From: Promethearchaeum syntrophicum
GTDB lineage: Archaea; Asgardarchaeota; Lokiarchaeia; Sigyniarchaeales; Promethearchaeaceae
DNA: 32,000 nt
Direction of reading: 5' to 3'
Assembly (NCBI RefSeq): GCF_008000775.2
Contig: NZ_CP042905.2
Location: 600,001 to 632,000, forward strand
Shown here: in pieces, positions 6,707 to 24,149 of the stretch
How positions within the stretch are numbered: position 1 is the first letter of the stretch
Layout: each line of letters starts with the position of its first letter
Position numbers and translations under genes: made by a program
The notes under the pieces: generated by a model
The model's input: only the letters and a program-made list of their open reading frames with translations
What the model was told of the DNA's origin: nothing
Database searches by the model: none

Positions 6707-9469
6707 ATGAGCAATGAAGAAAATAAGAAAGCTGATATCAAACTTAAGAAAAGTCACGTAATGATTGCAATATTAATAGGAACAATTGTACTTGGTATTG
6801 GTGCTTTGCGCCTACTTCACCATGATTTCAATATTGTAAGTCTGTATAACGATGATGAAATCGAATTTGATGTTTATGTTTCAGGATCGTATGCGTATGT
6901 AACGATATATCAGGATGGTTTAAAGGTTCTAGATATTTCCGATCCGACCAATCTGGTGGAAGTGGGACATTTTGATGATGGTGATGGTGGTGCAGAAAAG
7001 GTTTTTGTTTCGGAATCGTATGCGTATGTGGCGACAGATGAGGATGGTTTAAAGGTTATTGATATATCCGATCCCACCAATCCGGTGAAAGTGGGACATT
7101 TTGATGATGGTGATTATCCAGAAAGTGTTTATGTTTCTGGTTCATATGCTTATGTAGGGTATAATTATGATGCTGAAGGTTTGAAGATTATCGACATTTC
7201 CAATCCAACATCCCCCACGAAGGTTGGATTCTTTGACGATGGCAGTGATTATGCGCAAAATATTTATGTTTCCGGATCGTATGCTTACATAGCGGAAGCT
7301 GGGGATGGTTTGGCGATTCTCAACATTTCCAATCCAACAACTCCCACGAAAGTGGGACATTTTGATGATGGATTTGTACAGGATGTTTATGTTTCGGGAT
7401 CGTATGCGTATATTGTGGTAGGTAGTGATGGGTTAGCAATACTTAACATTTCTGATCCGACCGATCCAGTGGAAGTGGGGTATTTTGATGGTAGTGGTGG
7501 TGCAGAAAGTGTTTATGTTTCGGGATTGTATGCGTATGTGGCGACAGATGAGGAAGGTTTAAAGGTTATTGATATTTCCGATCCGACCAATCCAGTGGAA
7601 GTAGGACATTTTGATGATGGGGGAAATCTTAAAGAAGTGTTTGTGATCGGAGGTTATGCCTACGTTATCGATTGGAGAGATGGTTTGGAAATCATTGATC
7701 TTTGGAGCCCAAAAGAAAAAATTTCAAATAATATTCTATGGGGAATTATGGGTATTCTCATTTTTCTCACTCTGGTTGATCTCCGGGGCCTTATCAAGGA
7801 AGCTCTACCAATCTGGGAAGATTATCGAGATTTCAAGGATGAAGGGAAGAGAATAAAAATATTGGGTATATGTAAGGGTTTTTTCTTGACAATAGGAATA
7901 CATTTGGTTAATTTAATTATCCTTCTTCTATTTTGGAAACATCCCGATCCATATACATATCAAGTTATTCTAAAGTTCCTTATATTACCACTATTTATAA
8001 TATCCGTAGTAATTAACATTAAAATAATAACTCGAACTCTCAGACGAAATCGTATATACTTTTTCCTTGGATTGATATTTCCGTATTTAATGGCATTGCT
8101 TATTGGAATTTTCTTAATAATAAATTATATCATTATAAATGTTAGTCCAGGAACACTTCTTGTGAAAAATCCACAAGTTCACATAATTGTTCTTGGGTCA
8201 CTTAGCCTATCCCTTGGTATTCTATTGTTATTAATGTTAAAGATATATTCTAAAGAACAAGGGGATGGTCATCTAAAAGGAGAAAAAATGAAAGATGAAG
8301 AAAGAGAAAAAGAAGAAAAAAAGAAAATCGATACCAAACTCAAGAAAAGTCAGATTAATGCTGTGATATTATTAATCGGGTTAGTAGGACTTATTATTGG
8401 AGCAAGTTTTCTTCTTTATCATAATTTCAATATTATCGGGTATGTTGATAATGGTGGATTGGCAAATGATATTTATATTTCGGGGTCGTATGCGTACGTA
8501 GCGGATGGTCGTGATGGTTTAGAGATCATTGACATTTCTGAACCGACCGATCCAGTACAAGTGGGACAAATCTATGATGGTAGTGGAAATGCAAATAGTG
8601 TTGCTATTTCGGGGTCGTATGCGTACGTGGCGGATGGAACCGATGGTTTAGAGATTATTAACATTTCCGACCCGACCGCCCCCGTAAAAGTGGGAGAATT
8701 TTATGATGATAGTGGGGAGGCACTTGGCGTTGCTGTTTCGGGATCGTATGCGTACGTGGCGGATGGTCGTGATGGTTTAGAGATCATTGACATTTCCAAT
8801 CCGACCGATCCAGTACAAGTGGGTCAATTTGGACATTTCTATGATTATGGATATAGACGGGATGTTGCTGTTTCGGGGTCGTATGCGTACGTAGCGGATG
8901 GTCTTAATGGTTTAGAGATCATTGATATTTCCGATCCCACCACTCCTGTGGAAGTGGGACAAATTTATGATGGTGGAGATTCATATGGTGTTTCTGTTTC
9001 GGGATCGTATGCGTACGTGGCGGATGGTCGTGAAGGCTTAGAGATCATTGATATTTCCGATCCCACCACTCCCGTGGAAGTGGGACAAATCTATGCTGAT
9101 AAAGGATCTGCACGCGGTGTTTATATTTCGGGTTCGTATGCTTATGTCGCCCATAGTGAACATGGCTTAGAGATCGTTGACATTTCCGATCCGGCCAATC
9201 CGGTTGAAGTGGGAAACATCAATAGTTATAGTGGAAATGCACGTGGTGTTTCTGTTTCGGGTTCGTATGCTTACGTGGCGGATGGTCGTGGTGGTTTAGA
9301 GATTATCGATCCTTGGAGCTCAATAGAAATAATATCCAATATCATTCTTGGAATTCTAATCTTTCTGGTATTGGTGTTGATCTTCATTACATATTTAAAG
9401 AATTTTTACCACTCTAACGAGGATGTATCCAAAAAGATGGAGTATCAAAAATTGAATAATGATTATTGA
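6707..9469 (+). CDS. Membrane protein with two seven-repeat LVIVD (beta-propeller) modules separated by a polytopic TM region
   Basis: 920 aa with 7+7 repeats of SGSYAYVA..DGL.IIDISDPT.PV.VG. Both modules start with a basic segment plus TM helix (KKADIKLKKSHVMIAILIG.. and KKIDTKLKKSQINAVILLIG..) and end with D(L/P)WS plus a TM helix. Confidence 0.85.
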   Translation: MSNEENKKADIKLKKSHVMIAILIGTIVLGIGALRLLHHDFNIVSLYNDDEIEFDVYVSGSYAYVTIYQDGLKVLDISDPTNLVEVGHFDDGDGGAEKVFVSESYAYVATDEDGLKVIDISDPTNPVKVGHFDDGDYPESVYVSGSYAYVGYNYDAEGLKIIDISNPTSPTKVGFFDDGSDYAQNIYVSGSYAYIAEAGDGLAILNISNPTTPTKVGHFDDGFVQDVYVSGSYAYIVVGSDGLAILNISDPTDPVEVGYFDGSGGAESVYVSGLYAYVATDEEGLKVIDISDPTNPVEVGHFDDGGNLKEVFVIGGYAYVIDWRDGLEIIDLWSPKEKISNNILWGIMGILIFLTLVDLRGLIKEALPIWEDYRDFKDEGKRIKILGICKGFFLTIGIHLVNLIILLLFWKHPDPYTYQVILKFLILPLFIISVVINIKIITRTLRRNRIYFFLGLIFPYLMALLIGIFLIINYIIINVSPGTLLVKNPQVHIIVLGSLSLSLGILLLLMLKIYSKEQGDGHLKGEKMKDEEREKEEKKKIDTKLKKSQINAVILLIGLVGLIIGASFLLYHNFNIIGYVDNGGLANDIYISGSYAYVADGRDGLEIIDISEPTDPVQVGQIYDGSGNANSVAISGSYAYVADGTDGLEIINISDPTAPVKVGEFYDDSGEALGVAVSGSYAYVADGRDGLEIIDISNPTDPVQVGQFGHFYDYGYRRDVAVSGSYAYVADGLNGLEIIDISDPTTPVEVGQIYDGGDSYGVSVSGSYAYVADGREGLEIIDISDPTTPVEVGQIYADKGSARGVYISGSYAYVAHSEHGLEIVDISDPANPVEVGNINSYSGNARGVSVSGSYAYVADGRGGLEIIDPWSSIEIISNIILGILIFLVLVLIFITYLKNFYHSNEDVSKKMEYQKLNNDY
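8440..9300 (+). repeat. Highly similar ~126-140-nt intragenic tandem repeats (LVIVD units of module B)
   Basis: Strings such as tcggggtcgtatgcgtacgt(a/g)gcggatggtcgtgatggtttagagatcattga(c/t)atttcc recur at about 8471, 8611, 8740, 8875, 9001, 9129 and 9257. Confidence 0.85.
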
Positions 9470-9470
9470 C

Positions 9471-9602
9471 AATTCCAACCCGACCACCCCTCTAAAAGTG
9501 GGACAGTTCGATCATGAAGAGTATGCACACAGTGTCTATGTAGTCGGAAACTTTGCTTACTTAATTGATTATTTTAATGTGTTTTTTTGTTTTTTTATTT
9601 AA
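9471..9602 (+). pseudogene. Orphan LVIVD repeat fragment directly after the stop of the 920-aa gene, in another frame
   Basis: Hand translation from 9471 gives NSNPTTPLKVGQFDHEEYAHSVYVVGNFAYLIDYFNVFFCFFI*. This is one LVIVD unit with no start codon, shifted +1 relative to the upstream ORF. Confidence 0.5.
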
Positions 9603-9722: not shown

Positions 9723-9974
9723 ATGGCTAACGGTACAGTTAAATGGTTTAATGGTCGTAAAGGTTTTGGTTTTATCACTCCTGCTGAAGGAGAAAAAGAC
9801 GTTTTCGTTCATTACAGTGCTATTCAAGTTGCAGAGAATGAATTTGCAACCTTAAACGAGAACGATGAAGTAGAGTACGAAGTAGTTGAGGGAGAAAAAG
9901 GCTTAGAAGCAAAGAACGTCACAATTACAAAGAAAGCACCTTATCAACCTCGAAATAGAAGAAATAACTATTAA
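9723..9974 (+). CDS. csp: Cold-shock domain protein (CspA family) with basic C-terminal tail
   Basis: 83 aa. [17 protein letters not shown] (RNP1-like KGFGFI) and DVFVHYSAI (RNP2-like VFVH). The tail is [14 protein letters not shown]. Confidence 0.9.
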
Positions 9975-10103
9975 GATTTAAGTATTTAGATTTAGTAATA
10001 AAATAAAATATTTATGCTGAAATTTTTGATTGAATGTATGGCATTACAATGCCCCTGAGATTTACCCTGTTGGGGTGGATTTATTTTTAGTTTTTTCCTA
10101 TAA
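9971..10103. repeat. Direct repeat R1 (left boundary of island); csp downstream/terminator region
   Basis: ttaagatttaagtatttag..tttatgctgaaatttttgattgaatgtatggcattacaatgcccctgagatttaccct..ggggtggatttattttt recurs at 22311-22434. By eye there are about 6 substitutions plus a 6-nt and a 5-nt indel. Confidence 0.9.
10040..10096 (+). terminator. Putative csp terminator: two short hairpins followed by T-runs
   Basis: ggcat-taca-atgcc (10040-10053), then accc-tgttg-gggt (10064-10076), then ttatttttagtttttt. Oligo-T tracts are known archaeal termination signals. The stems are short. Confidence 0.35.
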
Positions 10104-10105
10104 TC

Positions 10106-10168
10106 TTACTTATAATTTAAATTGAGTTGGTAGATTCTCCCAGTAGATGCCCAGAGCGACCTGTTTTT
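10106..10168 (-). pseudogene. Scrap homologous to the 3' end of the GNAT gene at 22438..22980
   Basis: ataatttaaattgagttggtagattctcccagtagatgcccagagcgacc aligns by eye with agaatttaatctgtgagtgaatattctcccagaagaaacccaaagcatcc (22440-22490). Similarity decays after about 60 nt. Confidence 0.5.
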
Positions 10169-10202
10169 AATTATTGGTTATGCTACACTTTACATGTAAA
10201 CA

Positions 10203-10271
10203 GAGGTAGAGTACGAAGTCGTTGAGGGAGAGAATGGTCTTTATCAATTTTGGAATAGAAAATTTATTTAG
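10203..10271 (+). pseudogene. Detached 3'-end fragment of a divergent csp allele
   Basis: It reads [22 protein letters not shown], against the intact csp [34 protein letters not shown]. Nucleotide identity is obvious (gtagagtacgaagt.gttgagggaga). It is 36 nt shorter, in frame, and has its own stop at 10269-10271. Confidence 0.7.
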
Positions 10272-10295
10272 GTAGAGAAAAAATTTAATAATGAG

Positions 10296-11921
10296 ATGCA
10301 ATTAAATGCACTACATTTCTCGGACTTACATTTTGGGCAATATAATTTAAAAGAAGAAGAAAAGAAGAGAGGAGATTTTGATAATTTCTTTTCCAATTTG
10401 CTACTTCAGTTGAAGAAAATTATTGTATCAGAGAAAATAAACCTAATCATCATATCTGGGGATTTTTGTTCAAGAAATCAATTTGAGGAGGATATCTTGA
10501 TTTCTTCAAACAAATATCTCGATGAATTTATAAACGTTTTCAAAGAAAAAGACATTTCAGTATTAATTTGTATAGGTAATCATGAAATTTCTCGTTCAAT
10601 GGATCATTCAAAAAGACAGAAATTATACTTTGAATTAATAAATCACATAAAAAAAGATCTAAATATCAATTTTTCAAAAAATTTTAATCGAAATATAATA
10701 TCATATAAGATTTTCAAACAACAACAAAAAATTTTCTTTAGCATGGATAGTACCTTCAGTTTGACAAAAGAAGGGGAATGGGAAAATTCAAGTTTAAATC
10801 TGAAGGATATAGATGAATTTCTTAATGAAATAAATTCCCAAATAAATCTAACAAATTATGATAAATACATTATATCTCATCATGGACTTTTAGACATGCC
10901 CAATAATCAAGATATAATCGAAGGTTTACATGCTCGAAAAATCTATTACATATTTTCAGGACACAAACATGATAAATATTACATACCTTTTCATATTCCT
11001 GGAGAAAAACTACCTATTAATAATTATATTGCTGGGTCAATTCTTCTTTCTCAAAAACGGAGAGCAGAATCAAAATCTTGGATTCCCGCAGATCTTCAAT
11101 TTAATCAATATTCTTTTGAAAAAAGTTATAGTAAAGATATTGTTAATGCTTGGTATTGGCGTTATAATTCAAATGCACGATGGGTTAAAGAAGAATTAAA
11201 AATAAATCGAGAAGATAATGGTACTAAATGCGGAATTTTTTCTCAAATGGTTCCAAATTATAAAGAATCTTTTGATTTCCTTCTTGATATTAATCAAAAA
11301 TTTGATGAAAATTCTCAATGTATTACCAGTTGGGAAGATATAAACAAAGATATTCTGAATTTTTCTCAAAAAATTCATAATAATAATAAATTAAAAAAGA
11401 TTTTATTTGATGGGAATACGCACCTCTCAATAGGGTTCTCATTCGGGTATCAATTTAGACAAACAACTGGATATAAAATTTCGTACAAAAATCAATTAAC
11501 TAATCAAACATGGAATCTTGAAGAATTGAATTTTTCGGAAATAGGTCCAGATTTGGAAATAGATGTTGATATCGGCGATGAAGATAATAAATATTCAGTT
11601 ATAATAATTAATATTGGAAGTCGTGATGTAGTAAATCCAACTAAAGAATATCTTCTGAATAAAAAAATCAAATTTGAGAAATTGTTAAGTTTCAAATATT
11701 CACCAACCCTAACTACTCAAATAATTACTCCACTAATAAATTCCATAATTGATACAATTTCAAATGAGATTTCGAATTATAAAAAATATTATTTGTTTAT
11801 TGCTGGTCCACTTGCATTTTTTGGATTGTTGGCTACAAAATTTAATATGATAACACCATTACAATTACATGAATTTAGCCGAACAGAGAAAAATTATTTT
11901 CCAAGCATGTTGTTAATTTAA
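10296..11921 (+). CDS. CBASS effector candidate: calcineurin-like metallophosphoesterase fused to a C-terminal SAVED-like sensor domain
   Basis: 541 aa. The MPE motifs occur in order: FSDLHFG (DxH), IISGDF (GD), CIGNHE (GNHE), ISHHG, FSGHKHD (GHxH). The C-terminal ~200 aa end in KKYYLFIAGPLAFFGLLATKFN..LQLHEF, the hallmark SAVED ending. The gene lies directly upstream of the CD-NTase. Confidence 0.7.
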   Translation: MQLNALHFSDLHFGQYNLKEEEKKRGDFDNFFSNLLLQLKKIIVSEKINLIIISGDFCSRNQFEEDILISSNKYLDEFINVFKEKDISVLICIGNHEISRSMDHSKRQKLYFELINHIKKDLNINFSKNFNRNIISYKIFKQQQKIFFSMDSTFSLTKEGEWENSSLNLKDIDEFLNEINSQINLTNYDKYIISHHGLLDMPNNQDIIEGLHARKIYYIFSGHKHDKYYIPFHIPGEKLPINNYIAGSILLSQKRRAESKSWIPADLQFNQYSFEKSYSKDIVNAWYWRYNSNARWVKEELKINREDNGTKCGIFSQMVPNYKESFDFLLDINQKFDENSQCITSWEDINKDILNFSQKIHNNNKLKKILFDGNTHLSIGFSFGYQFRQTTGYKISYKNQLTNQTWNLEELNFSEIGPDLEIDVDIGDEDNKYSVIIINIGSRDVVNPTKEYLLNKKIKFEKLLSFKYSPTLTTQIITPLINSIIDTISNEISNYKKYYLFIAGPLAFFGLLATKFNMITPLQLHEFSRTEKNYFPSMLLI

Positions 11922-11990
11922 ATTAATAAACCACAAAACCACATTTTTATAAATTCAAGTTTTATTTTGAATAATAAGGGGTAAAAAAAA

Positions 11991-12977
11991 ATGGCAAAAA
12001 CTGTATCTGCTGCTTTTGAAGAATTTAAAACTTTAATTGAGCCATCTCCAGAAGAAAGGAAAAAAATTATTACTCGACATGAATATATTCGCAATAATAT
12101 ATCAGAATTCATTACTCTTGATAAGAACAATAGTAGTTTTCTATCAGGTTCTTATATTAGATCTACTCAGATAACACCCGTAAATGATGTTGACATAGTA
12201 TTGGTTTTAGACAAAGATACTTATTATGATAAATATAAAACTGAAATTGTAAAACTATTAGAACATATAAAACGAATGTTGAAAAAACTTGGAAATTATC
12301 AGACAACAGAAATGCGAAAACAAACTCATTCTATTGGGATGTTGTTAAGACATGGAGCGAAAGTAGATATTGTTCCTGCATTTTTAAAGAATTCGGAAGA
12401 AAACATATATGAAATACTTGATAAGGATAAGAATTGCTATATCGAAACCGCTCCACAGAATCATAAAGAATTGATTTCAAATTATAATAAAGAAATCAAT
12501 AACTTCATTCCAGTAGTCAAAATGTTAAAAAATTGGAAAAATACTATAAATAATCAACTAATTAATGATAAGTTCAAGATAAAATCTTTTCATTTAGAAT
12601 TGTTAGCGATAAATGCAATTAATAATAGTTTCAGTGGATACCGTGATGGAATAATTCAATTTTTCCAAAATGCAGAACAATTAACCCTAAAAAAGTTAGA
12701 AGATCCATTAGGTATTAGTGGAGATATTTCTTCATATTTATCATCTGAACAAAAAAAAACTTTAAATGAAAAAATAGAAGCAATTAACGAAAAAATCAAT
12801 AAATTACGTGATTATGAATCAAAGGGAGAACATCAAAAAGCAATTTCTGGGTGGAGACAGATTCTCGGTCACCCATTCCCAGATAAAGAAAAATCAACAT
12901 CCCAGAATAATCAAACTCAAGAAAAAAGAGAGACAAAACATCCAAAACATGGGAAGAATTATATATTTGGGAAATAA
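11991..12977 (+). CDS. cdn: cGAS/DncV-like nucleotidyltransferase (CD-NTase, SMODS-type)
   Basis: 328 aa. Pol-beta NTase core LSGSYIRSTQITPVNDVDIVLVLD (GS...DxD; Asp codons 12186-12188 and 12192-12194) with the third acidic residue in GAKVDIVPAF. Followed by Cap2 and Cap3. Long polar C-terminal tail ending ..NYIFGK. Confidence 0.85.
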   Translation: MAKTVSAAFEEFKTLIEPSPEERKKIITRHEYIRNNISEFITLDKNNSSFLSGSYIRSTQITPVNDVDIVLVLDKDTYYDKYKTEIVKLLEHIKRMLKKLGNYQTTEMRKQTHSIGMLLRHGAKVDIVPAFLKNSEENIYEILDKDKNCYIETAPQNHKELISNYNKEINNFIPVVKMLKNWKNTINNQLINDKFKIKSFHLELLAINAINNSFSGYRDGIIQFFQNAEQLTLKKLEDPLGISGDISSYLSSEQKKTLNEKIEAINEKINKLRDYESKGEHQKAISGWRQILGHPFPDKEKSTSQNNQTQEKRETKHPKHGKNYIFGK

Positions 12978-12986
12978 AATATTAAA

Positions 12987-14792
12987 ATGAATCGAACTCA
13001 ATATTTGAAATTATTAAATAATCTATCTACATTGAAAGATGGGTATAATATTAAACAAATTTCATATGGAAAGAATAAAATAATTAGCGCTCGGTTTAGA
13101 TATGGGGAAAATGATATTAAATATGCCAAAATATTTATATCAGACGAATTTCCTCTAATTCCTCCAAAGGTATGGTTGTTTGATGATATAAGATTAGAAA
13201 AAATATCAGATTTTCAATGGACTACTCATAAGAATTCTGACGATTCAATTTGTTTATTTACTGGATCGTTAAGTGATAATAGCTGGCGTTATCAAGATTC
13301 AATTTTTAAAATCTTTTTAAAAATCGAAGCTTTTCTCACTCAATGCCTTTCCAATACGATATCAGACGATCATTCAACTATATTCTATCCTGTACCAGGA
13401 AGACCTCAAGATCCTGTAGTTTTTATGTTTTATGAGGACTTTCATGAAGCTAAGAAAAATTCTGAAAATGAATTATTTCTATATTCGTTTTTAGACAATA
13501 GACCTGCGTTTTTACTTACATTAAAAAAAAATAAAAATGATTTTGATGTGATTAAAGAAAAATATGGATGGATTATTAATCCATATTATCAAAAAGCGTA
13601 TATTGTATTTTTAAATACAAATATATTAGATTTTAGAAGAAATTTAAAAGGTGAAATTAATTTTGAGAAAATTGTATCAGAATATTTAGAAGAGAATATC
13701 AATCTCTCAAATTATGATTATTTTGCCTTTTTTTTTAAAGATAGTGTCATTTCCGATGAACTCATTATAAAAACTTCCCAATTCAATCCTCTTTTATCCT
13801 ATCTATATGATTTAAAAGGAAAGAAGTTTGAAAATATTAATAAAATTCCTCATTTTAAAATAATCGGATTTAACCCTACTTATGATCTTTATCAAAGAAC
13901 TTATGGAGTTTTAGAAAAAATGATTGATTCAATTGAAGAAAAATCTTTATTAATTATAGGACTTGGTTCTATGGGCTCAACAATTGCGCTTGAATTGGCT
14001 AAATCAGGATTCAGGAAATTTAGTTTAGTAGATCCAGATATCCTAAATCCAGTGAACGTTTGCAGACATATTGGATTTTTATCAGATATTGGGAAACACA
14101 AAGTAGAGATTGTTAGAGAACAGATTATGCAAAAAAATCCATATGCAGATGTTGTTCCCTATCCAAATGATTTATTTTTGAACAAAAACTTGCCAATCTT
14201 AGCACATCTTATCAAAGAATCCGATATAATTATTGATACGACCGCAGTTGAATCTGTTGGTATGCTGATAAATAAATTTGCATTAGAGTTAAATAAAGTA
14301 GCTATTTATTGTTATTGTTATCGTAATGCTATTCTTGGAAGAATTTTTAAAGTAATTCCAAAAAGAACTCCTTGTTATAGTTGTGTTCAACAGAGTTTAA
14401 TGAAAGACGAAGGTTATTTTTCTAGTTTGGGAAAAAATTCTTCCGAGGATGATGATTTGAATGGAAATGTATATTTCGAAGGATATTCTGAACCAGGGAT
14501 ACCTGGAATAAGTATCGATATTAATTTTGTAAATTTATTTGTATGCAAATTCATTATTGAAACGTTAAAAAAAGAATTACATCAAATTCCGATGTTAAAA
14601 GCAGATCATTATTTGTGGCAAAATTCCCCAACTAAGTATGGAAATGAGCAGGTTGGTTTTATTCCTATTGGTGACGAAATTCAAAAGGATCGAAACTGTA
14701 AGTTTTGTGGATCTTCTTTAAAATTACAGAATTCTGGAAAACATCGTAAAACCGAACAAAAGATCCAAAAACTCGAAAAAAAACTTAAATAA
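12987..14792 (+). CDS. cap2: Cap2: fused E2-like (UBC) and E1-like (ThiF/MoeB adenylation) enzyme
   Basis: 601 aa. E2 signatures: FPLIPPKVWLF (compare eukaryotic YPxxPPKVxF) and TTHKNSDDSICLF (HxN...C). E1 Rossmann: LLIIGLGSMGSTIALELAKSGFRKFSLVDPDILNPVNVCRHIG. Cys pairs: CYSC and CKFCG. Confidence 0.9.
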   Translation: MNRTQYLKLLNNLSTLKDGYNIKQISYGKNKIISARFRYGENDIKYAKIFISDEFPLIPPKVWLFDDIRLEKISDFQWTTHKNSDDSICLFTGSLSDNSWRYQDSIFKIFLKIEAFLTQCLSNTISDDHSTIFYPVPGRPQDPVVFMFYEDFHEAKKNSENELFLYSFLDNRPAFLLTLKKNKNDFDVIKEKYGWIINPYYQKAYIVFLNTNILDFRRNLKGEINFEKIVSEYLEENINLSNYDYFAFFFKDSVISDELIIKTSQFNPLLSYLYDLKGKKFENINKIPHFKIIGFNPTYDLYQRTYGVLEKMIDSIEEKSLLIIGLGSMGSTIALELAKSGFRKFSLVDPDILNPVNVCRHIGFLSDIGKHKVEIVREQIMQKNPYADVVPYPNDLFLNKNLPILAHLIKESDIIIDTTAVESVGMLINKFALELNKVAIYCYCYRNAILGRIFKVIPKRTPCYSCVQQSLMKDEGYFSSLGKNSSEDDDLNGNVYFEGYSEPGIPGISIDINFVNLFVCKFIIETLKKELHQIPMLKADHYLWQNSPTKYGNEQVGFIPIGDEIQKDRNCKFCGSSLKLQNSGKHRKTEQKIQKLEKKLK

Positions 14793-14812
14793 TTTAATAT
14801 GGGTGCTTTGAA

Positions 14813-15271
14813 ATGAAAAGAAAGAAACTTCAATTTTCAACAGAAATTATTCATCAGCTATTTGCTGAAATAAAAAATGAAAGAGTTGAGAATTGTGGTG
14901 CTTTAATAGGAAAGCAAATAGATAGCACTTTGTTTAGAGTGACTAATTATGTTAAAGATGATAAACCAATATTTCAATCAAGATTCAACATTCAACGGAA
15001 TACGAATAATTTATATCATTTGATTAATGAAATTGTTAAAAAAAAAGAAGAAGAAGTTGATTATATAGGTGAGTGGCACTCACACCCAAATTCTTCATGT
15101 ATTTATAGTCAAATCGATTTTCTAACCATGAATATGATGATTAATGACCCTGATTACTCCTTTTTAAATGAGATCATACTATTTATTGTAGGAAAAAACC
15201 GTTGTATGAATGCTTTTCTTTTTAGTAAGTCTCGAAATCGACCTATTTCATTAAAAATAATTGTAAAATAA
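14813..15271 (+). CDS. cap3: Cap3: JAB/JAMM (MPN+) isopeptidase
   Basis: 152 aa. Upstream Glu in VENCGALIG, and the JAMM motif GEWHSHPNSSCIYSQIDFLT (HxHx7Sx2D). Confidence 0.9.
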   Translation: MKRKKLQFSTEIIHQLFAEIKNERVENCGALIGKQIDSTLFRVTNYVKDDKPIFQSRFNIQRNTNNLYHLINEIVKKKEEEVDYIGEWHSHPNSSCIYSQIDFLTMNMMINDPDYSFLNEIILFIVGKNRCMNAFLFSKSRNRPISLKIIVK

Positions 15272-15352
15272 TATCAGATTTTTCAATTATGAGAAAAATT
15301 TCTTACTCTTGATTCATAGGGAAGGTAATTTTTATATTACAATGAATAAACA

Positions 15353-17260
15353 ATGAATATGAGTTTCATTCTTAAAAAGATAAAAATAGAAAATTATAGA
15401 TGTTTTAAGGAATTCGAGTTCGATTTATGTGAGTTTAATACAATTGTTGGGAAAAATGCAACAGGAAAATCTTCTTTACTCTATGCTATTAATGAAATTA
15501 ATAATGAAAAGCTTTCTAAAGAGACAATTTATAATGATTATAAAGAAAATGAAATCCAAAGAATTTCTTTCTTTTTTTCAGGAATTATAGAAAATTCCTC
15601 TATAAAAATTCGAGATCCAATTCTGATTTTAACTGACGAGGGTTATAAAATAACGTATTTCGAACTGTTTCTAAAAATATCAGAAGTTAAAATGATAAGT
15701 CCCAAAGAAAATTTTCGGTATAATGGAACAAATGAGAGTTTAAAACAAGTAAAACTACAAAATCTTTTGGAAATTAAAAATAAAAAGGAATTTATTTTTC
15801 AATCAAAAGATTGGAATCCAATTCATGAAGTTAAGTCCAAATTTAATTTTATATTGAAAAATTGGACTCTCCCAAGTCTAATTTTTTTTATTGACAGCAA
15901 AGCTATACTACAAACTCATGATTTTAGTAAAATTGAAAGCTCTTCTAATTTCAAAGAAATTCTAATTGATTTAGCCAGACCAAAGGTAATTTTCTTTAGT
16001 GAAAATATTTTGAATCAAAATATTAATTCAAGTTATAATTTTTTATCGTTTAATGAAAACTTCAACTTTACACTGAAACTTCTGAAATTAGGAGAAATTG
16101 ATCGAGAAAAGTTTCAGAAATTAAGTGAAAGTGCAAAAGAAAATATGATTGAGAACATTGAAGCAAAATTTAATGAAATTTTTCTTAATCAACCATATCC
16201 AGTATCTATGATCCAATTTTCATTTCAATTCATTAAAGATAACTTTAGTTTCAAACCTAGATTGAAGAATGGTAAAAAAATTGAATTTGAAAACCTTAGT
16301 GCAGGTCTTCGATGGTTATATACGTTTATCTTGGTTTTCTTTGATCCGTTGATTCATGATGATATAATTGAAAAATTTGATCATAGAATTATTTTGATAG
16401 ATGAACCGGGGAAAAACATCCATCCAGAGGCACAAATGGAAGTGCTAGAATATTTAAAACTCATGAATAAAAACAACCAAATAATTTATTCTACACATAT
16501 GCCCTTTTTAATTGATTATTCCAACCCAAATAGTGTTCAATGTATTTCCTATGTTCAAAATACTCAAAAGCACGAAATTTCTAATGGAAAAGCGTCGGAT
16601 TTAAAAATACGAATTGCAGATGCAATTGGATTACCTAAAGAAAGATTTCTAACATTTCCAGAAAAGATTCTCCTTGTGGAAGGTCCAAGTGATAGAGTAT
16701 TTATTGAAAGAATAAATGAGTATTTTCATGAAATAAATAACAAATTAGCACAATCATCGGAAATTGAGATTTGGTTTTACCATGGTCTTTCTGAAATTAA
16801 TCATCTTTGCAAACTTTTTGATAGTTGGAAAAGAAGGAATTTTCTTCTTCTATATGATGATGATACTGATCTATTTTCCAAAGGAAAGGTAAAAGATCCA
16901 AAAGATGAACCTGAAGTACAGAAATTTCGCCGTAATATTGTGAAATTAACACACCCCGCTATAAAAAAGAATATTGCAATAGAAGATTTTATTCCACGAA
17001 CTTTATTTAATTCAACGTTAAAAAAATGGTTAAAGAGTTATGGGTATGAGAAAGATTTTCTCAAAGATGTGCAAAACGATATTAAAGATCCACAAGTAAA
17101 TCAAAGTCAAATTATTTCCAGATTAGAAAAAGAAGAACAATTGAGTAAGTTAGAATTCATTAAACTCATATTTGAAACTGAAAATCAGAAATTATTTACT
17201 GAAAATTTGAAAATAGTATATCTATTTCAATTAATTACTGAAAAATTTAGAAAAATATAG
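15353..17260 (+). CDS. OLD-family nuclease: N-terminal ABC-type ATPase plus C-terminal Toprim domain
   Basis: 635 aa. KIKIENYRCFKEFEFDL..NTIVGKNATGKSSLLYAI (Walker A), LSAGLRWLYTFIL (signature-like), RIILIDEPGKNIHPEAQ (Walker B), IIYSTHMPFLI (H-loop). Toprim: KILLVEGPSDRVFIE, then FLLLYDDDTD, then IEDFIP. Confidence 0.8.
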   Translation: MNMSFILKKIKIENYRCFKEFEFDLCEFNTIVGKNATGKSSLLYAINEINNEKLSKETIYNDYKENEIQRISFFFSGIIENSSIKIRDPILILTDEGYKITYFELFLKISEVKMISPKENFRYNGTNESLKQVKLQNLLEIKNKKEFIFQSKDWNPIHEVKSKFNFILKNWTLPSLIFFIDSKAILQTHDFSKIESSSNFKEILIDLARPKVIFFSENILNQNINSSYNFLSFNENFNFTLKLLKLGEIDREKFQKLSESAKENMIENIEAKFNEIFLNQPYPVSMIQFSFQFIKDNFSFKPRLKNGKKIEFENLSAGLRWLYTFILVFFDPLIHDDIIEKFDHRIILIDEPGKNIHPEAQMEVLEYLKLMNKNNQIIYSTHMPFLIDYSNPNSVQCISYVQNTQKHEISNGKASDLKIRIADAIGLPKERFLTFPEKILLVEGPSDRVFIERINEYFHEINNKLAQSSEIEIWFYHGLSEINHLCKLFDSWKRRNFLLLYDDDTDLFSKGKVKDPKDEPEVQKFRRNIVKLTHPAIKKNIAIEDFIPRTLFNSTLKKWLKSYGYEKDFLKDVQNDIKDPQVNQSQIISRLEKEEQLSKLEFIKLIFETENQKLFTENLKIVYLFQLITEKFRKI

Positions 17261-17575
17261 TTTAATGATCAGAATATATAAGAAACCAACCTTTTTTATC
17301 CATTTACTAAATTTAGTGATGAAAGTCTTTATCAATTTTATTACAGATTATATTGTTTACAAAATTAGTAAGTGAAAAATAGAATCCCAATCTTCCAAAA
17401 ATTCATTAAACAAAATTATATTTTTAATAACGATTAAATAATAATTCGGTTTCGGAATTTGGTTTCAAACTACTCATTTTTTTGAAGAAACATTAAAAAG
17501 AATTAGGTTTGAAAGAATATATTTTAGTAAAATCATAGTAATATTTTTTTATAATAAATATAACTTGTATATAAA

Positions 17576-18742
17576 ATGGATCAAAATAAAAATAGAGATG
17601 CTAATATCATTGAAGCGTTTATGTGCAAGTGTATCAAAAGTAATCCTAAAAATTATAATTTATTCTGGCTTTGTGATGATGATGGTCTTTCAGCGAAGAA
17701 TGATATTATTACAATAATAAAATCTATGCTTGGTGAAAATAATATTCTTTTTATTTCACTCAATGATATTAATTCGGATTATATTCTGCATGATAATAAT
17801 TCTCTATTTTCACTTTTTGTAAGGATTCCCCAACCTCATGAAAATCATTCACTTGAATTAAGTGGCCTTATGAAAATTATCGATAATATGAATATTAAGT
17901 TTAAATTGAATAATGGAAATTTAATTGATACAAAGATCTATTTTCAGATAACATTAATATCAGATTTTGATCCTTTCATATATATAAAGAAAAAAGACTA
18001 CAGTTGGGTAATTTCAAATATTATTTTCATCAAGATTTTTAAAAGAATGGAATTTGGCATCACAAATAAAATCATTAAAAAGGAATTAGATGGTATTTTT
18101 TCATATTTAATTAATTCAGTGTTTCATGAAGCAGATAATATTATTTCTGATCAAAAACAATTCCAGATTTTATTTTCAAACTATTTAACAGAAATTCTTC
18201 CTGATATAAATCTTGAATCTCATATTGAAAATATTAAAAACGAAATAATGAACAGAATCAACTTAAATGAAATCATTCAGAATCACCTGATGGAACGGGT
18301 ATTGAACTGTATTCTCTCTTTTTATAGTGCTCATCAAGTAGAACCATTATTTGAATCTGGAAAAAAAGTATTTGAGAAAGAATTTCACAAAAGAGTTTAC
18401 TCTCATCTCTATCCTCTCTTAGGAACAAATATTGAAAATCATAAGAAAGTGGGCAAAGGAGATATTGATTTTTTAATATATAATTATCCTCTAGATGTTA
18501 AAGTTGAAGAAAAAGATCAGAAATTGGAGGAGATATATTTAAATCATAAAGATCAAATAATCCAATATTGTTATTACCGAAAGGAAAGAGTAGGTTTTCT
18601 TTTAGTATACGAAAATACGATAAAGAAACCAAATTTTGAGAAAAAAGATTACAAGGTATTCCAAGAAGATGGAATTTATGTAATAATCATTCTTTTGCGT
18701 GGTAATTTTCCATATCCAAGTAAAATGAAATCTCAAAAATGA
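17576..18742 (+). CDS. Uncharacterised protein with C-terminal PD-(D/E)xK nuclease-like motif set; N-terminus weakly resembles a degenerate P-loop NTPase
   Basis: 388 aa. C-terminus: EKEFHKRVYSHLYPLLG..GKGDIDFLIYNYPLDVKVEEK..DQIIQYCYY, which gives E, D, DxK and QxxxY in canonical order. N-terminus: NLFWLCDDDGLSAKNDIITIIKSMLGENN sits where P4/D5-type NTPases carry GxGxNGKST...LxG. Preceded by a 315-nt AT-rich gap. Confidence 0.5.
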   Translation: MDQNKNRDANIIEAFMCKCIKSNPKNYNLFWLCDDDGLSAKNDIITIIKSMLGENNILFISLNDINSDYILHDNNSLFSLFVRIPQPHENHSLELSGLMKIIDNMNIKFKLNNGNLIDTKIYFQITLISDFDPFIYIKKKDYSWVISNIIFIKIFKRMEFGITNKIIKKELDGIFSYLINSVFHEADNIISDQKQFQILFSNYLTEILPDINLESHIENIKNEIMNRINLNEIIQNHLMERVLNCILSFYSAHQVEPLFESGKKVFEKEFHKRVYSHLYPLLGTNIENHKKVGKGDIDFLIYNYPLDVKVEEKDQKLEEIYLNHKDQIIQYCYYRKERVGFLLVYENTIKKPNFEKKDYKVFQEDGIYVIIILLRGNFPYPSKMKSQK

Positions 18743-19125
18743 ATGAAAAAACTATTTAAATTGTTGATCTTGTTATGAATGTTAGAAAATAATTCATTAT
18801 GTAATGGTTTGAATGAGAACCTTTTTAAAAAACATGTCAAATCATTTCTATTTAAAGAAAACTATAGTATTAGTTTAGAAAATTACTTGAAATTGGTAAT
18901 AGAAATTAAAGATATATCAATCGTTTTTAATTGATTGAAATTTCGTTTAAATCAAAAAATTATAATATCTCAATATTTTTCAAGAATTTTTCATGATTTT
19001 CTTTTTCATACAACGAATTCCTTTCAGTTTTATTCTAAATGCCTCTTATTTCCGTATATTGATGATACATTGAATGAAAAAACGTTTTTAGAAAATTTAA
19101 AAAAAAGAAAAAATTCCTATAGAAT

Positions 19126-22100
19126 ATGAGTAATGAAAATCCATTTGAAGTTTATGATTTAAATGAAATATTGAAATCAGATATTCCGCATATAATACAA
19201 AAGAATAATAGTGAATTATTAGAAAATAATTTCAAATTAAATCCTCAAAATTATTCTACATATCAAATTAATATAATTCAGAATATACAAGAAAAATTGA
19301 AAAAACAAGAATTAGATATTGGAGATAAAATATTTGCATTGGAATTAATTCTAATTTCCATAGAATTAGATTTTGATATAGATAATTCAACCAAAGATTT
19401 AATATGGGAATTTATGATTAATCATATTCTTCCAACAGGTGCATTAAATTGGGAAAAGTATAAAATTCTTTTAAAAATTGTTAAAGTTGAAGATATCAGC
19501 AATATAATTGAAAAAAATCCTGCATTAAGTGAATTATTTTTTGATGCTTATCCCGAAAGAAATGCTGAATTTTTTAAAATATGCATTAAATATGAGAAAT
19601 GGGCGATAGCTCGAAAAATTTTAGAAAATTATAATAATTTGATACCCGAAAATTTAGAAGATGTAAAAAAATTGTTTGAAAATTATTATATCAATCATTC
19701 AACACTAAAGAAAATGCAAAATAATCTTGATCCATCGATTCTAAATGAATTAAATGGTATTAGAATCAAAAGAAAAGAAAATTGGATTGAACAATTACAG
19801 ATAAAATTAAAAATTATTGAGGAAGAAGGTATCAATCCGAAAAAAGATATGTATCAGTTACAATATAATTTATCATTTATAATAGACACTTTTTCAGGAT
19901 TAGAACTTGAAAAAATTTCTATAGATTGTCTTAATGCTTTAAAAAATCCATCAAATGATAGGTGGGTCAATATGATTTTATTAGAAATTATATTTTTTAA
20001 TAGTAAGATTATCTCTTCCTTAATCCCTCGCATTGAGGAGTATGGTTTTGAAAATCTTCTTTTTTTTTATTATTACAATAATCCTGATTTACTTCTAGGT
20101 AAACAAACTTCTTGGTTCGTTAAATACAAAGATCGAGGATTAGATATTGCAAAAATTTACCTAAGTCGGTTAGGATACGAAAATAGACCTACTATGCATT
20201 TATTTTCATTATTTATTTCTAATGATTTTCAACCAATTGAAGCTCTTCTAGAATTATGTTTGACAAATTCTTCCACTAAATCAGAAATCCAAGAAATAAT
20301 AATGGAAAAAATAATATCCATAGATTTTTCAAGAATTAAAGAAATTCCTAATGGGATCTCTTATTTGACTATTCTACTTAATAATCATGGCTTTTCCGAA
20401 TGGTACTTTAAATTTCCGATAGACTTTTCTATAAAGAAAATATTAGAATTAAAAGACAATTGCGAAGAACTACATGAATTTCTCAATGGGACAACATTTT
20501 GGGATATTGTAAGCAGAATGGAGTCCAAATTCCATCAATTTTTTATTAACCTTCTTATTGATAAGAACCAAAAGTCTATTTTATATTTAATTGATTCATA
20601 TCCTGAAATATTTATGGCAAATATTGATATTTTTATCACTAAAATCTCTGAAAGAGATAATATGACTTCAAGTGATTTGAAAATTATTAATTTACTTTTA
20701 AAAAAGAAATCAATTTCATTTACTATAGGAAAAGATTTGAATAAATTTATTGAAATGAAACAACTAAATTATCAAAAAGTAAGATTGTTGCACACATTGG
20801 GAAAATATTCTGAATTAATTGATTTAATTATAGAATTGATGAATCTTCCTTACATTAATCCAAAATTCAAGATAATATTGTGGTTGGATTATATTTCATT
20901 ATGCCTAGAATATTCATTAGAAGATCTAAACGAAGAATTTGTTAAACAATTAATATTTTCCATTAATAATTGTTATGAAAAGAGTAAATCCGCTTTTTCT
21001 CATAATGATTGGGATTTTTTTCTCAAATATTATTATATAATTGGTAGATTATATCTTGTGCAATATCAAAAAAATCCAGATGAAGATAAAAATCATTTAC
21101 TTGAAAAATCAAAACAATTATTTATTGAAGGATTAAAATATTCTACTGATATTGAAACAAACTCTCTTCTTTCAGAATTAATTATTGTAACAGAAATCGA
21201 TCTCAGTGCAAAATCTCTAAAAAAAGATATTACAAAGTTTACACATTTATCATTATTAAATGATTTTTTGATTAGAACTAATCCTCCTCTTTTTTCAATA
21301 GAAAGAAATATATTGACTGCTTGCTTCCATCTTGAAATTGCAGAAAAAAATAGCAAAAATCCTCTATTTAGCTGGGATAAAAATAAAAAACTTATATACA
21401 CATGGGATTATTTACCTCCTTTTGATGAAAAATCTCCTCTTTTTAGGTTAATGATACATAAATCAATAATAACTGAAAAATTACAAAATTATTCTCTATT
21501 AATTAGAAGTAAATTGAAGATTAACGAAGAAAATGAAATTCCCATTTCGATGGGAGTGCAATCAGATTGGTATGTTGCAGAATTTAAATTAAATTTATTC
21601 GATGTTGATTCTTTATCTGCATTTGAACTATTTTTCAAAAAAAAGGATGATTTTCCTTCTTATGAAGCAAATCTTCCTTTAATAGGTAAAATTATTCCAA
21701 AAGAAATGCATTTAATGGAACTAATCGAAAGAGAAATTGTATTATGCTGTGAAATAATTCAAAATAGGCATATTATATTAAAAAAAAATTTAGAAATTCC
21801 TTTAAATGATTTATTGACTGATTTTTTAAGACAAGGACTTAAAACATACAATATTGATGTTAATCAAGAACAGAGAGGTGGAAAATCTAAAAAGATTGAA
21901 GGAGAAATAGATATATCTTTCTATTATCAAGGAGGGCATCGTATTACTATTTTAGAAGCATTATTATATAACAACACTCATGTAGAACATTATGAGAAAT
22001 TGGTCAAAAATTATGATGCTATTGGTCGATTAAGAAATTTCATTTTAATTTATTATATTGGTGATAGTTTCTACCAATTTGTTGAAAACTACAAAGAAAA

Positions 22101-22248
22101 TATATCTAAATCTAAAATATTTGAAAGATTTGAACCATATAGGCGAACTTTTGATTCCACAGAAATACGAATTTTAAAATCAATTCAGAAGAATTTTAAT
22201 TCTAAATTTAATGTCATTCATTTTATTGTACACTTAAGAAATCCTTGA
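19126..22248 (+). CDS. Large (1040 aa) uncharacterised, apparently all-helical protein with C-terminal nuclease-like domain related to that of the 388-aa neighbour
   Basis: Long uninterrupted ORF with no P-loop or other catalytic motif in the first ~900 aa. The C-terminus IEGEIDISFYYQGGHRITILEALLYNN..HYEKLVKNY..FILIYYIGD parallels GKGDIDFLIYNYPLDVKVEEK..QIIQY..GFLLVYENT in the neighbour. Confidence 0.5.
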   Translation: MSNENPFEVYDLNEILKSDIPHIIQKNNSELLENNFKLNPQNYSTYQINIIQNIQEKLKKQELDIGDKIFALELILISIELDFDIDNSTKDLIWEFMINHILPTGALNWEKYKILLKIVKVEDISNIIEKNPALSELFFDAYPERNAEFFKICIKYEKWAIARKILENYNNLIPENLEDVKKLFENYYINHSTLKKMQNNLDPSILNELNGIRIKRKENWIEQLQIKLKIIEEEGINPKKDMYQLQYNLSFIIDTFSGLELEKISIDCLNALKNPSNDRWVNMILLEIIFFNSKIISSLIPRIEEYGFENLLFFYYYNNPDLLLGKQTSWFVKYKDRGLDIAKIYLSRLGYENRPTMHLFSLFISNDFQPIEALLELCLTNSSTKSEIQEIIMEKIISIDFSRIKEIPNGISYLTILLNNHGFSEWYFKFPIDFSIKKILELKDNCEELHEFLNGTTFWDIVSRMESKFHQFFINLLIDKNQKSILYLIDSYPEIFMANIDIFITKISERDNMTSSDLKIINLLLKKKSISFTIGKDLNKFIEMKQLNYQKVRLLHTLGKYSELIDLIIELMNLPYINPKFKIILWLDYISLCLEYSLEDLNEEFVKQLIFSINNCYEKSKSAFSHNDWDFFLKYYYIIGRLYLVQYQKNPDEDKNHLLEKSKQLFIEGLKYSTDIETNSLLSELIIVTEIDLSAKSLKKDITKFTHLSLLNDFLIRTNPPLFSIERNILTACFHLEIAEKNSKNPLFSWDKNKKLIYTWDYLPPFDEKSPLFRLMIHKSIITEKLQNYSLLIRSKLKINEENEIPISMGVQSDWYVAEFKLNLFDVDSLSAFELFFKKKDDFPSYEANLPLIGKIIPKEMHLMELIEREIVLCCEIIQNRHIILKKNLEIPLNDLLTDFLRQGLKTYNIDVNQEQRGGKSKKIEGEIDISFYYQGGHRITILEALLYNNTHVEHYEKLVKNYDAIGRLRNFILIYYIGDSFYQFVENYKENISKSKIFERFEPYRRTFDSTEIRILKSIQKNFNSKFNVIHFIVHLRNP

Positions 22249-22310
22249 AACTTTCATATATTTATAATAATAAATTTTCTCACATTTTTTTGCTTTTATC
22301 ATTTCATTTT

Positions 22311-22434
22311 TTAAGATTTAAGTATTTAGTAATAAAATATTTATGCTGAAATTTTTGATTGAATGTATGGCATTACAATGCCCCTGAGATTTACCCTACT
22401 GGGGTGGATTTATTTTTCGCTTTTTCCTATTATA
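22311..22434. repeat. Direct repeat R2 (right boundary of island); intergenic region upstream of the GNAT stop
   Basis: Copy of 9971-10103. It contains the same hairpins (ggcattacaatgcc at 22369-22382) and T-runs, and ends 3 nt before the GNAT stop codon (22438-22440). Confidence 0.9.
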
Positions 22435-22437
22435 TAA

Positions 22438-22980
22438 CTAGAATTTAATCTGTGAGTGAATATTCTCCCAGAAGAAACCCAAAGCATCCAATTTCTTTCC
22501 TCCATAAGTGAGAGTTTTATGAAATTTTGGAATACCCCCCATTTTGAGATAGAAATTACATGCAGAATTATCCTTCAACGCCCAAATAACCATTGTTTTA
22601 TAATTCATATCTAAGAAAGATTTAACTATTGCATTGAAAAGTAATGTGCCTATTCCTTGTTTCCAGTATTTAGGAAGAATATAAATCGCGTTTAGGTCAC
22701 CGTCGATATCATAATCATCATAAGAACTCCGACCACCCATGGAAAACCCGACAATATCAGTTCTATATTGAGAAGAAATTTCTGCCACAAACATTTCCTT
22801 CTTGTTTTTACCCAAATTTCTAATTCTTTGTGACCATGCCGGAATTTTATCAACTATAGAACGAGAATCTAGATAATCTTGAGGAATTATGCCTTTATAC
22901 GCTACTTTCCACGTGTTAATATTGATAGATGCAATAGCTGAGGCATCAGAAACAACTGCTTTTCTAATCGATACATTCAT
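22438..22980 (-). CDS. GNAT-family N-acetyltransferase
   Basis: 180 aa. IVGFSMGG.. and ILPKYWKQGIGTLLFNAIV (the Q/RxxGxG/A acetyl-CoA motif). Confidence 0.85.
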   Translation of the reverse strand: MNVSIRKAVVSDASAIASININTWKVAYKGIIPQDYLDSRSIVDKIPAWSQRIRNLGKNKKEMFVAEISSQYRTDIVGFSMGGRSSYDDYDIDGDLNAIYILPKYWKQGIGTLLFNAIVKSFLDMNYKTMVIWALKDNSACNFYLKMGGIPKFHKTLTYGGKKLDALGFFWENIHSQIKF

Positions 22981-23020
22981 TAAAATAAAAAATAGAGAAA
23001 AGAAGAAAAAACTTTCTCAA

Positions 23021-23533: not shown

Positions 23534-23537
23534 GTTA

Positions 23538-23912: not shown

Positions 23913-24149
23913 TTTTAATTCACATCTTATATTTTTAATAGAGTTTGCGCAAATTTAACGCAATATTCAGTAAAATTAAATTTATTCTATAAAAAAATAA
24001 TCAAATAATAGTTAATTAAAAATGCACTTAAATGTCATTCTTTATTATTAAAATATTTTCTTAAGATTTGCTTAAACAATATAAATTGAATTGAATCACA
24101 TATCTAATATTAACATTGAAAGAGAGATTTTTTAAATATCCGCTTAAAT

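Follow-up and report, generated by a model that had tools for sequence, protein, structure and literature searches.

Layered insertion scars around a defense island in Promethearchaeum syntrophicum and the proposed import of an already duplicated csp/GNAT locus

Defense-island hotspots that lie between core genes and lack mobility genes occur in E. coli, Pseudomonas and Vibrio, and their turnover is attributed to recombination in the flanks. Integrative elements at gene 3' ends carry a replacement 3' end, and integrase-less, cis-mobilizable elements stack at attachment (att) sites. Here, we analyze a locus in Promethearchaeum syntrophicum MK-D1 in which a 12-kb island lies between a csp gene for a cold-shock protein and a gene for a GNAT acetyltransferase and is framed by two copies, R1 and R2, of a non-coding element, R, and by 3' scraps of both flanking genes. 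The window analyzed comprises 32,000 nt (positions 600,001 to 632,000 of the forward strand of contig NZ_CP042905.2), and coordinates refer to this window unless a relative is named; related lineages are given L numbers. A further described system concerns the effector-immunity arrays of the Vibrio type VI secretion system (T6SS), in which one-ended homologous insertion leaves orphaned 3' fragments, and homology-facilitated illegitimate recombination (HFIR) is the published explanation of strings of such fragments at Rhs and T6SS loci (PMC5361080).

As in HFIR or C-terminal displacement arrays, modules at the csp/GNAT locus are anchored by one conserved flank and orphaned 3' fragments are left behind, GNAT 3' fragments being present in MK-D1, L003, L007 and L009, and two scraps plus a weak remnant of the gene body in L018. 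Unlike in those arrays, the displaced gene is an ordinary GNAT gene and not a toxin gene, and fragments of both flanking genes are present together with a duplicated terminator element. Moreover, unlike for the hosts of the HFIR arrays, we know of no DNA-uptake route in this archaeon. As in Campbell-type integration, the insert lies between direct repeats of a target segment, could pop out and needs no dedicated recombinase; here, however, the frame pre-dates the cargo and is also found in cargo-free species, the outer left arm does not look native to the recipient, and neither a circle nor a donor was observed for the MK-D1 locus. With 3'-end-targeting and cis-mobilizable elements the locus shares direct repeats that include the GNAT 3' end and stacked cassettes split by repeat copies, and it differs from them in having no integrase, a repeat length that varies without a fixed core, and csp scraps on the far side. 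Finally, like the hotspots without mobility genes, it has variable, mostly defense-related content between the same core genes and no integrase. The locus belongs to this known type of integrase-free defense islands, the twist being its layered scars and a hyper-conserved R: unlike in the known hotspots, the flank in MK-D1 includes a non-coding element that is more conserved than the genes. We found no description of the architecture of the csp/GNAT locus in the literature and, as far as our literature searches show, this is the first such hotspot worked out in an Asgard archaeon.

The frame of the island consists of the following features:

9723-9974, plus strand: csp, cold-shock protein of 83 aa, left conserved flank (Pfam CSD, E 1.6e-27)
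9971-10110, plus strand: R1, first copy of the non-coding element R, in the csp 3' region
10110-10164, minus strand: 'type T' scrap from the 3' end of GNAT (TTATAATTT...), adjoining R1 in precisely the arrangement of empty sites
10165-10186, no strand: junction between the GNAT scrap and the csp scrap, common to relatives (AATTATTG..GCTAC)
10187-10271, plus strand: scrap of the csp 3' half, with a core (10203-10237), 36 nt missing internally, a decayed tail and a TAG stop codon (10269-10271)
22311-22437, plus strand: R2, second copy of R, apparently chimeric, 62 nt after the last cargo gene
22438-22980, minus strand: GNAT acetyltransferase of 180 aa, right conserved flank (Pfam Acetyltransf_1/7)

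The csp and GNAT genes are convergent and enclose, in this order, R1, the GNAT 3' scrap, the csp 3' scrap, the island (10272-22310) and R2. This layout and the direct repeats had been proposed in a first-pass annotation made from the sequence alone, and both were borne out, the layout by alignments and profile searches. R1 (9971-10110) and R2 (22311-22437) are direct repeats with ~94% identity, and a local alignment with a score of 221 joins 9971-10158 to 22311-22486, R and the GNAT tail being duplicated over ~190 nt. The ungapped core of the repeats (10002-10110 versus 22331-22439) is 94% identical and their longest exact tract is 67 nt (10002-10068 = 22331-22397), and the window contains exactly two copies of a 30-nt core of R versus zero expected from shuffles. 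R1 starts at the last base ahead of the csp stop codon (9972-9974). R2 had been thought to end 3 nt before the GNAT stop codon; instead, the similarity between R1 and R2 continues through this codon (22438-22440).

The scraps were identified with nhmmer profiles built from 11 GNAT and 11 csp alleles. The similarity beyond R1 indeed corresponds to the GNAT 3' end (10111-10164, E 3e-9, positions 489-542 of 543 in the GNAT profile), with a score matched by 0/2000 shuffles, and the csp scrap was recovered at 10187-10239 (E 1.7e-5, positions 127-181 of 252 in the csp profile); both scraps stand well above the AT-rich background. Within the csp scrap, the core (10203-10237) is 89% identical to csp 9867-9901 (0/2000 shuffles as high), and the distal tail (10238-10271) with its own TAG stop codon is also significant (3/2000 shuffles). 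These parts had been recognized before; the scrap starts, however, at ~10187 and not at 10203, and in relatives it covers profile positions 118-183. The stretch 10169-10202, previously read as the clean junction of a former circle, is in part degenerate csp, and only ~10165-10186 is left over. We also rejected 10165-10202 as pure csp: it showed no significant match to csp in a shuffle test within the window alone, and the profile and the relatives extend the csp homology only to ~10187 (csp position 118). An in-frame TAA lies directly upstream of the core. The 36 nt deleted from the scrap encode 12 residues, which by our reading form the last beta-strand of the cold-shock domain and, because it lacks this strand, the scrap is not the tail of an intact allele. 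In keeping with its attribution to a different csp allele, the core differs from csp mainly synonymously (4/5 differences at third codon positions, p=0.045). The first ATG of the cargo (10296) follows 24 nt past the stop codon of the scrap. A profile search detected no GNAT, csp or R scraps inside the cargo, and there are no common motifs at the cargo boundaries or between the cargo modules.

The csp/GNAT gap is a true hotspot, as the first-pass annotation had proposed. Exact-protein look-ups and pattern scans yielded relatives from ~15 lineages, with an identical csp protein sequence on 21 contigs, and between the same flanks these lineages have different content in at least seven configurations:

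Class 0, empty csp-R-GNAT: L010, L013, L017, L021, L026
Class I, csp-R-(9-14 nt of the GNAT end)-one large open reading frame (ORF)-(partial R 3' end)-GNAT: L001, L004, L006
Class I-like, single ORF, GNAT lost: L005
Short filler only: L002
csp-R-(metallophosphoesterase gene)-R-(class I ORF)-(R remnant)-GNAT, with two full copies of R: L025
Class II, csp-R-GNAT scrap-csp scrap plus only ~60 nt: L003, L007, L008, L009
Class II plus an ICMT-like gene, a second GNAT remnant and a gene of 779 aa: L018-L020
Class II plus the 12-kb island and R2: MK-D1

The sought-after empty sites are represented by class 0. The donor configuration csp-cargo-R-GNAT was not found among the ~15 lineages, in which R or the scraps are found on the left of the cargo, and a metagenome pattern scan for a donor returned one short contig only. 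Every insert is framed by direct repeats that overlap the point where the 3' end of R meets the GNAT stop codon, with extents from ~35 to 190 nt, and Pfam detected no integrase or recombinase domain in the inserts examined (ORFs of L001, L005, L018 and L025; MK-D1 cargo).

In the window, 20 of the longer ORFs were searched with Pfam, and the cargo proteins also with PADLOC, NCBIfam and PHROGs. In agreement with the first-pass annotation, these scans revealed neither an integrase or recombinase nor a transposase domain; there is no IntI integrase in the window and no tRNA gene at the locus. There is also no short identical att core, the repeats being 125-190 nt long, 94% identical and of different extents at different loci. 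No dif-like palindrome (~11-6-11) is present at the junctions, the only candidate being a low-complexity 8-6-8 A/T match in R, and inverted repeats at the island ends score at the level of shuffles (740/1000). By our estimate, the resemblance between TATTTAG and TTTTAAG at the island ends is within chance.

The junction between the GNAT scrap and the csp scrap in L003, L007, L008 and L009 is the same as in MK-D1 (84-85% identical over 131 nt), and these four loci have neither cargo nor a second R. The conservation of the junction in L003, L007 and L009 implies a single origin. Because the MK-D1 junction is also present in cargo-free species, the scar is separable from the present cargo, and the frame was therefore not made by the arrival of this island in MK-D1. 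We considered whether the cargo-free scrap loci and L018 retain remnants of R2 (CTATTAAG, ATTAGTAA, AAGATTTAA) and dropped the idea, 1356/2000 and 293/2000 shuffles being as good against a csp-R-GNAT template. The scrap block of L018 is only 66-69% identical to the others; its linker differs, csp begins earlier in it, and its csp scrap is closer to the csp genes of other lineages than to that of L018 itself; it probably reflects an independent event of the same kind. In L018, a second GNAT remnant lies in the middle of the cargo (L018:13033-13157; JAUWOE010000003.1) and retains 60 nt of the 3' end along with a weak trace of the gene body, suggestive of the displacement and subsequent erosion of an entire older copy of GNAT. 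GNAT scraps are always of 'type T' and contiguous with R, and intact GNAT genes to the right of inserts are mostly of 'type G'. We lean towards displacement as the basis of this pattern; the GNAT gene of MK-D1 itself, however, looks native.

The flanks of the island in MK-D1 differ in their ancestry. For NifU, Rbr, Dfx and GNAT, MK-D1 is the outgroup to all other alleles, and for six of the seven genes other than csp (including NifS, NifU, GNAT, Rbr and POR) third-codon identity between MK-D1 and the other lineages is 61-75%. For csp, it reaches 87-89% with L002, L007, L010 and L026 (p=2e-5 to 2e-4 versus a 70% baseline) and is 62% with L017, which is the nearest lineage for Dfx and among the nearest for GNAT. 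The region upstream of csp is 85-88% identical to L010 and L018, and 68-76% identical to the rest. At the repeats, the right end of R1 together with the GNAT scrap departs from the consensus of empty sites by 7 differences over 78 columns versus 24 over 78 for the right end of R2 together with the real GNAT tail (Fisher p=0.001). The left part of R2 (22311-22417) has one difference in ~106 nt versus these 24 in 78 in its right part (Fisher p=2e-9), and from 22418 on R2 is lineage-specific and continuous with the native GNAT gene. Finally, R1 and R2 have a private 1-nt T insertion in common. In total, these comparisons show a locus that is chimeric as judged by its alleles, with csp, R1, the scraps and the left part of R2 resembling other lineages, and the right part of R2 and a native-looking GNAT allele belonging to MK-D1. 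The first-pass annotation had assumed that the MK-D1 site was a naive recipient; this was not supported, given that csp nests among other lineages and that R1 carries the private insertion of R2.

Combining the distribution of the scar with the allele comparisons, we suggest with a probability of about 0.5 that this is a recombinase-free defense island in a csp/GNAT hotspot and that a pre-formed, duplicated locus was imported by homologous recombination. In this model, (i) the scraps would be relics of older duplicative insertions at the same site, (ii) ordinary homologous recombination would have brought in the already duplicated locus from a related species, the cargo probably already lying between the csp scrap and R2, (iii) the left crossover would have occurred between NifU and csp and the right crossover inside R, to the left of 22418, with homology supplied by the near-identity of R across species, and (iv) later loss, replacement or stacking of cargo would have given rise to the other configurations. 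Given that csp and the left part of R1 are not native, we favor a double-crossover import of an already duplicated locus over a fresh single crossover. The topology of the frame itself is that of a duplicative, homology-anchored insertion and could have arisen by a Campbell single crossover of a circle, by a tandem duplication, or by a one-ended, homology-facilitated illegitimate join.

Several observations weigh against this model. No second copy of the cargo was found, exact look-ups of the cargo proteins matching only reads of MK-D1 itself, so that the arrival of the island is not tied to the imported block. The comparators are mostly short metagenome contigs from different species and not a population sample. 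The canonical left part of R2 could be native, R being strongly constrained; the similarity of csp could in part reflect codon selection or a separate short conversion patch; and the scrap block is more conserved than neutral proxies, so that selection is possible and would blur the dating. Moreover, the second R copies of MK-D1 and L025 both start at the csp stop codon (TTAAG / TATTAAG), and three GNAT remnants end close to profile position 484-489. Such regular boundaries are not predicted by random breakpoints and hint at a boundary that is site-specific or defined by selection.

In the scenario put forward in the first-pass annotation, a donor circle containing a csp tail, the cargo, R and a GNAT tail joined a naive csp-R-GNAT site by one crossover in R, thereby generating both scraps and repeats. 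The layout matches this scenario exactly, empty sites exist in relatives and no recombinase was found. In addition, R2 has a canonical left and a native right part, the right part of R1 and the GNAT scrap are donor-like, and most differences between the csp scrap and csp are synonymous. We nevertheless consider this scenario unlikely. While the topology does fit a duplicative homologous insertion, four loci without cargo have this very junction at 84-85% identity; the scenario calls for a native csp gene and a native left part of R1, yet csp groups with other lineages and R1 has the insertion of R2; the donor configuration was never seen; and the supposed junction filler is partly csp.

Alternatively, an ancient tandem duplication of ~320 bp, comprising the csp 3' half, R and the GNAT 3' end, may have occurred in situ and been inherited vertically, with the island inserted later and on its own, by some illegitimate event, exactly where the csp-scrap stop codon and R2 adjoin, and no import at all. 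This would be the simplest route to the observed topology, it accounts for a junction common to several species, and small tandem duplications are common here (6 nt and 5 nt in R1, 12 nt in L009, 8 nt in L021 and 37 nt in L026). However, the GNAT scrap and the right part of R1 are nearer to the alleles of other lineages than to the GNAT tail of MK-D1 (7 versus 24 differences), unlike an old neutral relic, the csp phylogeny is incongruent with that of the flanks, and remnants of R2 are not statistically detectable in the cargo-free loci. We regard this route as doubtful.

Less probable still is site-specific integration or accretion, in which the R/GNAT 3' end would be an att site and integrase-less cassettes would be mobilized in trans by a recombinase encoded elsewhere or since lost. 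All repeats do overlap one core, where the 3' end of R meets the GNAT stop codon; in L025 and L018, copies of the repeat lie between the stacked cassettes; two lineages have a second R that begins at the csp stop codon; and L003 and L005 have a 167-nt scrap of the NifU 3' end after a neighboring insert encoding LVIVD repeats. On the other hand, the inserts examined (L001, L005, L018, L025; MK-D1 cargo) show no integrase domain by Pfam, the repeats are long (35-190 nt) and of varied extent without a short identical core, the csp scraps are left unexplained, R is absent from viral contigs and plasmids, and there is no dif-like palindrome. An assembly artefact, i.e. a repeat-induced misjoin or an episome collapsed into the chromosome, is hardly credible: although short-read graphs break at R, R1 and R2 differ on either side of the 67-nt exact tract, which is short enough for ordinary reads to span, the locus is part of a 4.32-Mb NCBI contig, the GNAT protein and the CD-NTase are 100% identical to NCBI proteins of P. 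syntrophicum, and independent Logan contigs from DRR199588 match the window with 100% identity over 10039-22360 and 22368-25388 and are interrupted only within the exact tract, as expected for k=31 graphs; the assembly of the locus is sound.

R is a terminator-like element of ~115-135 nt at the csp 3' end and is hyper-conserved: ~12 of ~115 columns vary across 12 copies versus 52 of 84 third codon positions in csp and, by this measure, R is under strong constraint. In R1, two hairpins (10040-10053 and 10058-10082) are followed by a T run on the csp (plus) strand, the sole recurrent variable dinucleotide (10069-10070) falls in a hairpin loop, and in the R stem of L017 a U-G pair is changed to C-G. 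R matched no Rfam family at gathering or permissive thresholds and was rejected as a known RNA; its fold z-scores are unremarkable, and there is too little variation for covariation tests. From these features, R may be an element of the csp 3' untranslated region or a small RNA gene, and R2 could serve as terminator of the last cargo gene. A TATA-like sequence (AAAATATTTATG) lies close to the start of R (window 9975-10105 and 22316-22417). Small tandem duplications are seen in R1 (6 nt and 5 nt, window 9990-10010), at the csp stop codon of L009 (12 nt, 284-300) and in the R of L021 (8 nt); a 37-nt duplication within csp of L026 (L026rc:1681-1754) could be an assembly error or a frameshift.

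R was also rejected as a dispersed repeat or mobile element, having only two copies in the window and one exact core match per related contig (two contigs), and, with no copies in viral contigs or plasmids, as a viral or plasmid att site. The core of R matches two metagenome-assembled genomes of "Promethearchaeum sp." R offers near-perfect shared homology between species with ~84% identical genomes and is a plausible crossover site; pop-out by recombination between R1 and R2 appears feasible. As a more speculative and rather improbable extension, R might be the non-coding landing pad, and possibly a small RNA, of an integrase-free cassette system in Promethearchaeum-type Asgard archaea, with pop-out and pop-in via host homologous recombination. 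If so, near-identity across species would play the role that attC/attI sites have in integrons, and the R copies that start at the csp stop codon, the stacked cassettes and the 3'-end duplication between NifU and csp would be explained. R has two small hairpins and not the long imperfect palindrome of attC sites.

The 35-nt core of the csp scrap (10203-10237) is at least 90% conserved between species (scraps of L003, L007 and L009), and its flanks decay to ~68%. The core would either be constrained, perhaps as a promoter or as an RNA antisense to csp, or stem from a separate csp allele that is functional. The scrap's degenerate end (AGAAAATTTATTTAG, 10255-10271) sits 25-40 nt ahead of the first cargo ATG and resembles a B recognition element and TATA box; the csp scrap may thus have been co-opted as a predicted promoter of the island (AGAAAATTTATTTAG).

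The island encodes seven proteins, all on the same strand:

10296-11921, plus strand: metallophosphoesterase-SAVED effector (Pfam Metallophos and SAVED)
11991-12977, plus strand: CD-NTase (Pfam SMODS; PADLOC cyclase, E 9e-66)
12987-14792, plus strand: Cap2 E1/E2 (Pfam ThiF; PADLOC E1-E2, E 5e-27)
14813-15271, plus strand: Cap3 JAB (Pfam Prok-JAB; PADLOC JAB, E 5e-23)
15353-17260, plus strand: OLD-family ATPase with TOPRIM nuclease, 635 aa (Pfam AAA_15, AAA_21 and OLD-like_TOPRIM; PADLOC 'Old', E 1e-24)
17576-18742, plus strand: orphan protein, 388 aa
19126-22248, plus strand: orphan protein, 1040 aa

The first four genes (10296-15271, GC content 0.26-0.28) form an operon of a type II cyclic-oligonucleotide-based system for antiphage signaling (CBASS) and, as in other type II CBASS, CD-NTase, Cap2 E1/E2, Cap3 JAB and a SAVED effector with a nucleotide sensor are all encoded together. 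Unlike in these, the enzymatic domain of the MK-D1 effector is a calcineurin-like metallophosphoesterase. The PADLOC models for CBASS effectors and SAVED cover the SAVED half only, the phosphoesterase half matching only the candidate system PDC-S60, and this type of effector looks uncommon. The metallophosphoesterase cassette of L025 was considered as kin of the effector and found to be unrelated. A 2026 preprint lists CBASS II among the defenses of P. syntrophicum and suggests a bacterial origin. The nearest CD-NTase/CBASS that we identified is 50% identical and lies in another island at a different locus.

Downstream of the operon, an OLD-like protein is present as in Gabija, where GajA (OLD-like ATPase-TOPRIM) has the UvrD-type helicase GajB as its neighbor, but the adjoining 388-aa protein has no helicase domain in Pfam, PADLOC or NCBIfam. 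This orphan has no significant match in Pfam, PADLOC, NCBIfam or PHROGs, and its single-sequence AlphaFold2 (AF2) model is unusable, with a predicted local distance difference test score (pLDDT) of 33. For the 1040-aa orphan, a word index returned no homolog, and 45 weak HMMER matches (E >= 1e-8) are all confined to its C-terminal domain (~830-1040), which is common to proteins with leucine-rich or pentapeptide repeats. The AF2 model of this domain has a pLDDT of 73 and no significant match in the PDB. Its invariant residues (window 21526-22245) follow the pattern G-E-x-D ... E ... H..K ... Y-D, a motif that to our eye is putatively nuclease-like; the protein is not recognizable as a recombinase.

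The composition of the cargo gave a mixed answer to the question of foreign origin raised in the first-pass annotation. The GC content is lower in the cargo than in the core (0.24-0.28 versus 0.31-0.40), as is that at third codon positions, but the correlation of tetranucleotide frequencies between cargo and flanks is 0.96-0.98. With tetranucleotides that resemble the flanks, composition is only suggestive, and we do not take it as proof that the cargo is foreign.

Variable content is not limited to the csp/GNAT gap. A gene for a 920-aa LVIVD-repeat protein (window 6530-9580) is a variable insert between NifU and csp and is missing in L001, L002, L004, L010, L012 and L013. After the LVIVD insert of L003 and L005 comes a second copy of 167 nt from the NifU 3' end (L003:3407-3573 and L005:1075-1241), a flank-duplication scar of the same type. 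The gap between GNAT and rubrerythrin is also variable, with a transporter of the major facilitator superfamily in L002, L007 and L026 and a 70-aa ORF in L001; in L005, which is without GNAT, the cargo ORF abuts rubrerythrin (L005:3702-3724). A third variable spot encodes a TIR-domain protein of 154 aa in MK-D1 (25538-26002; TIR_2, E 1e-11, ThsB-like) and a VapBC pair in L001, and a TIR_2 gene lies in a nearby intergenic region in L026.

Very few Asgard archaea are in culture, P. syntrophicum MK-D1 being one of them, and gene exchange in such organisms is essentially unknown. The csp/GNAT locus provides a sequence-level example of a hotspot with dated layers of insertion scars, of homologous recombination between species that reaches into a defense island, and of a hyper-conserved non-coding element able to act as shared homology. 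It leads to predictions that can be tested: circles formed by pop-out, and activity of R as a terminator or small RNA. The locus also draws attention to an unusual CBASS effector and to two orphan defense candidates in a model organism that is relevant to the origin of eukaryotic immunity.

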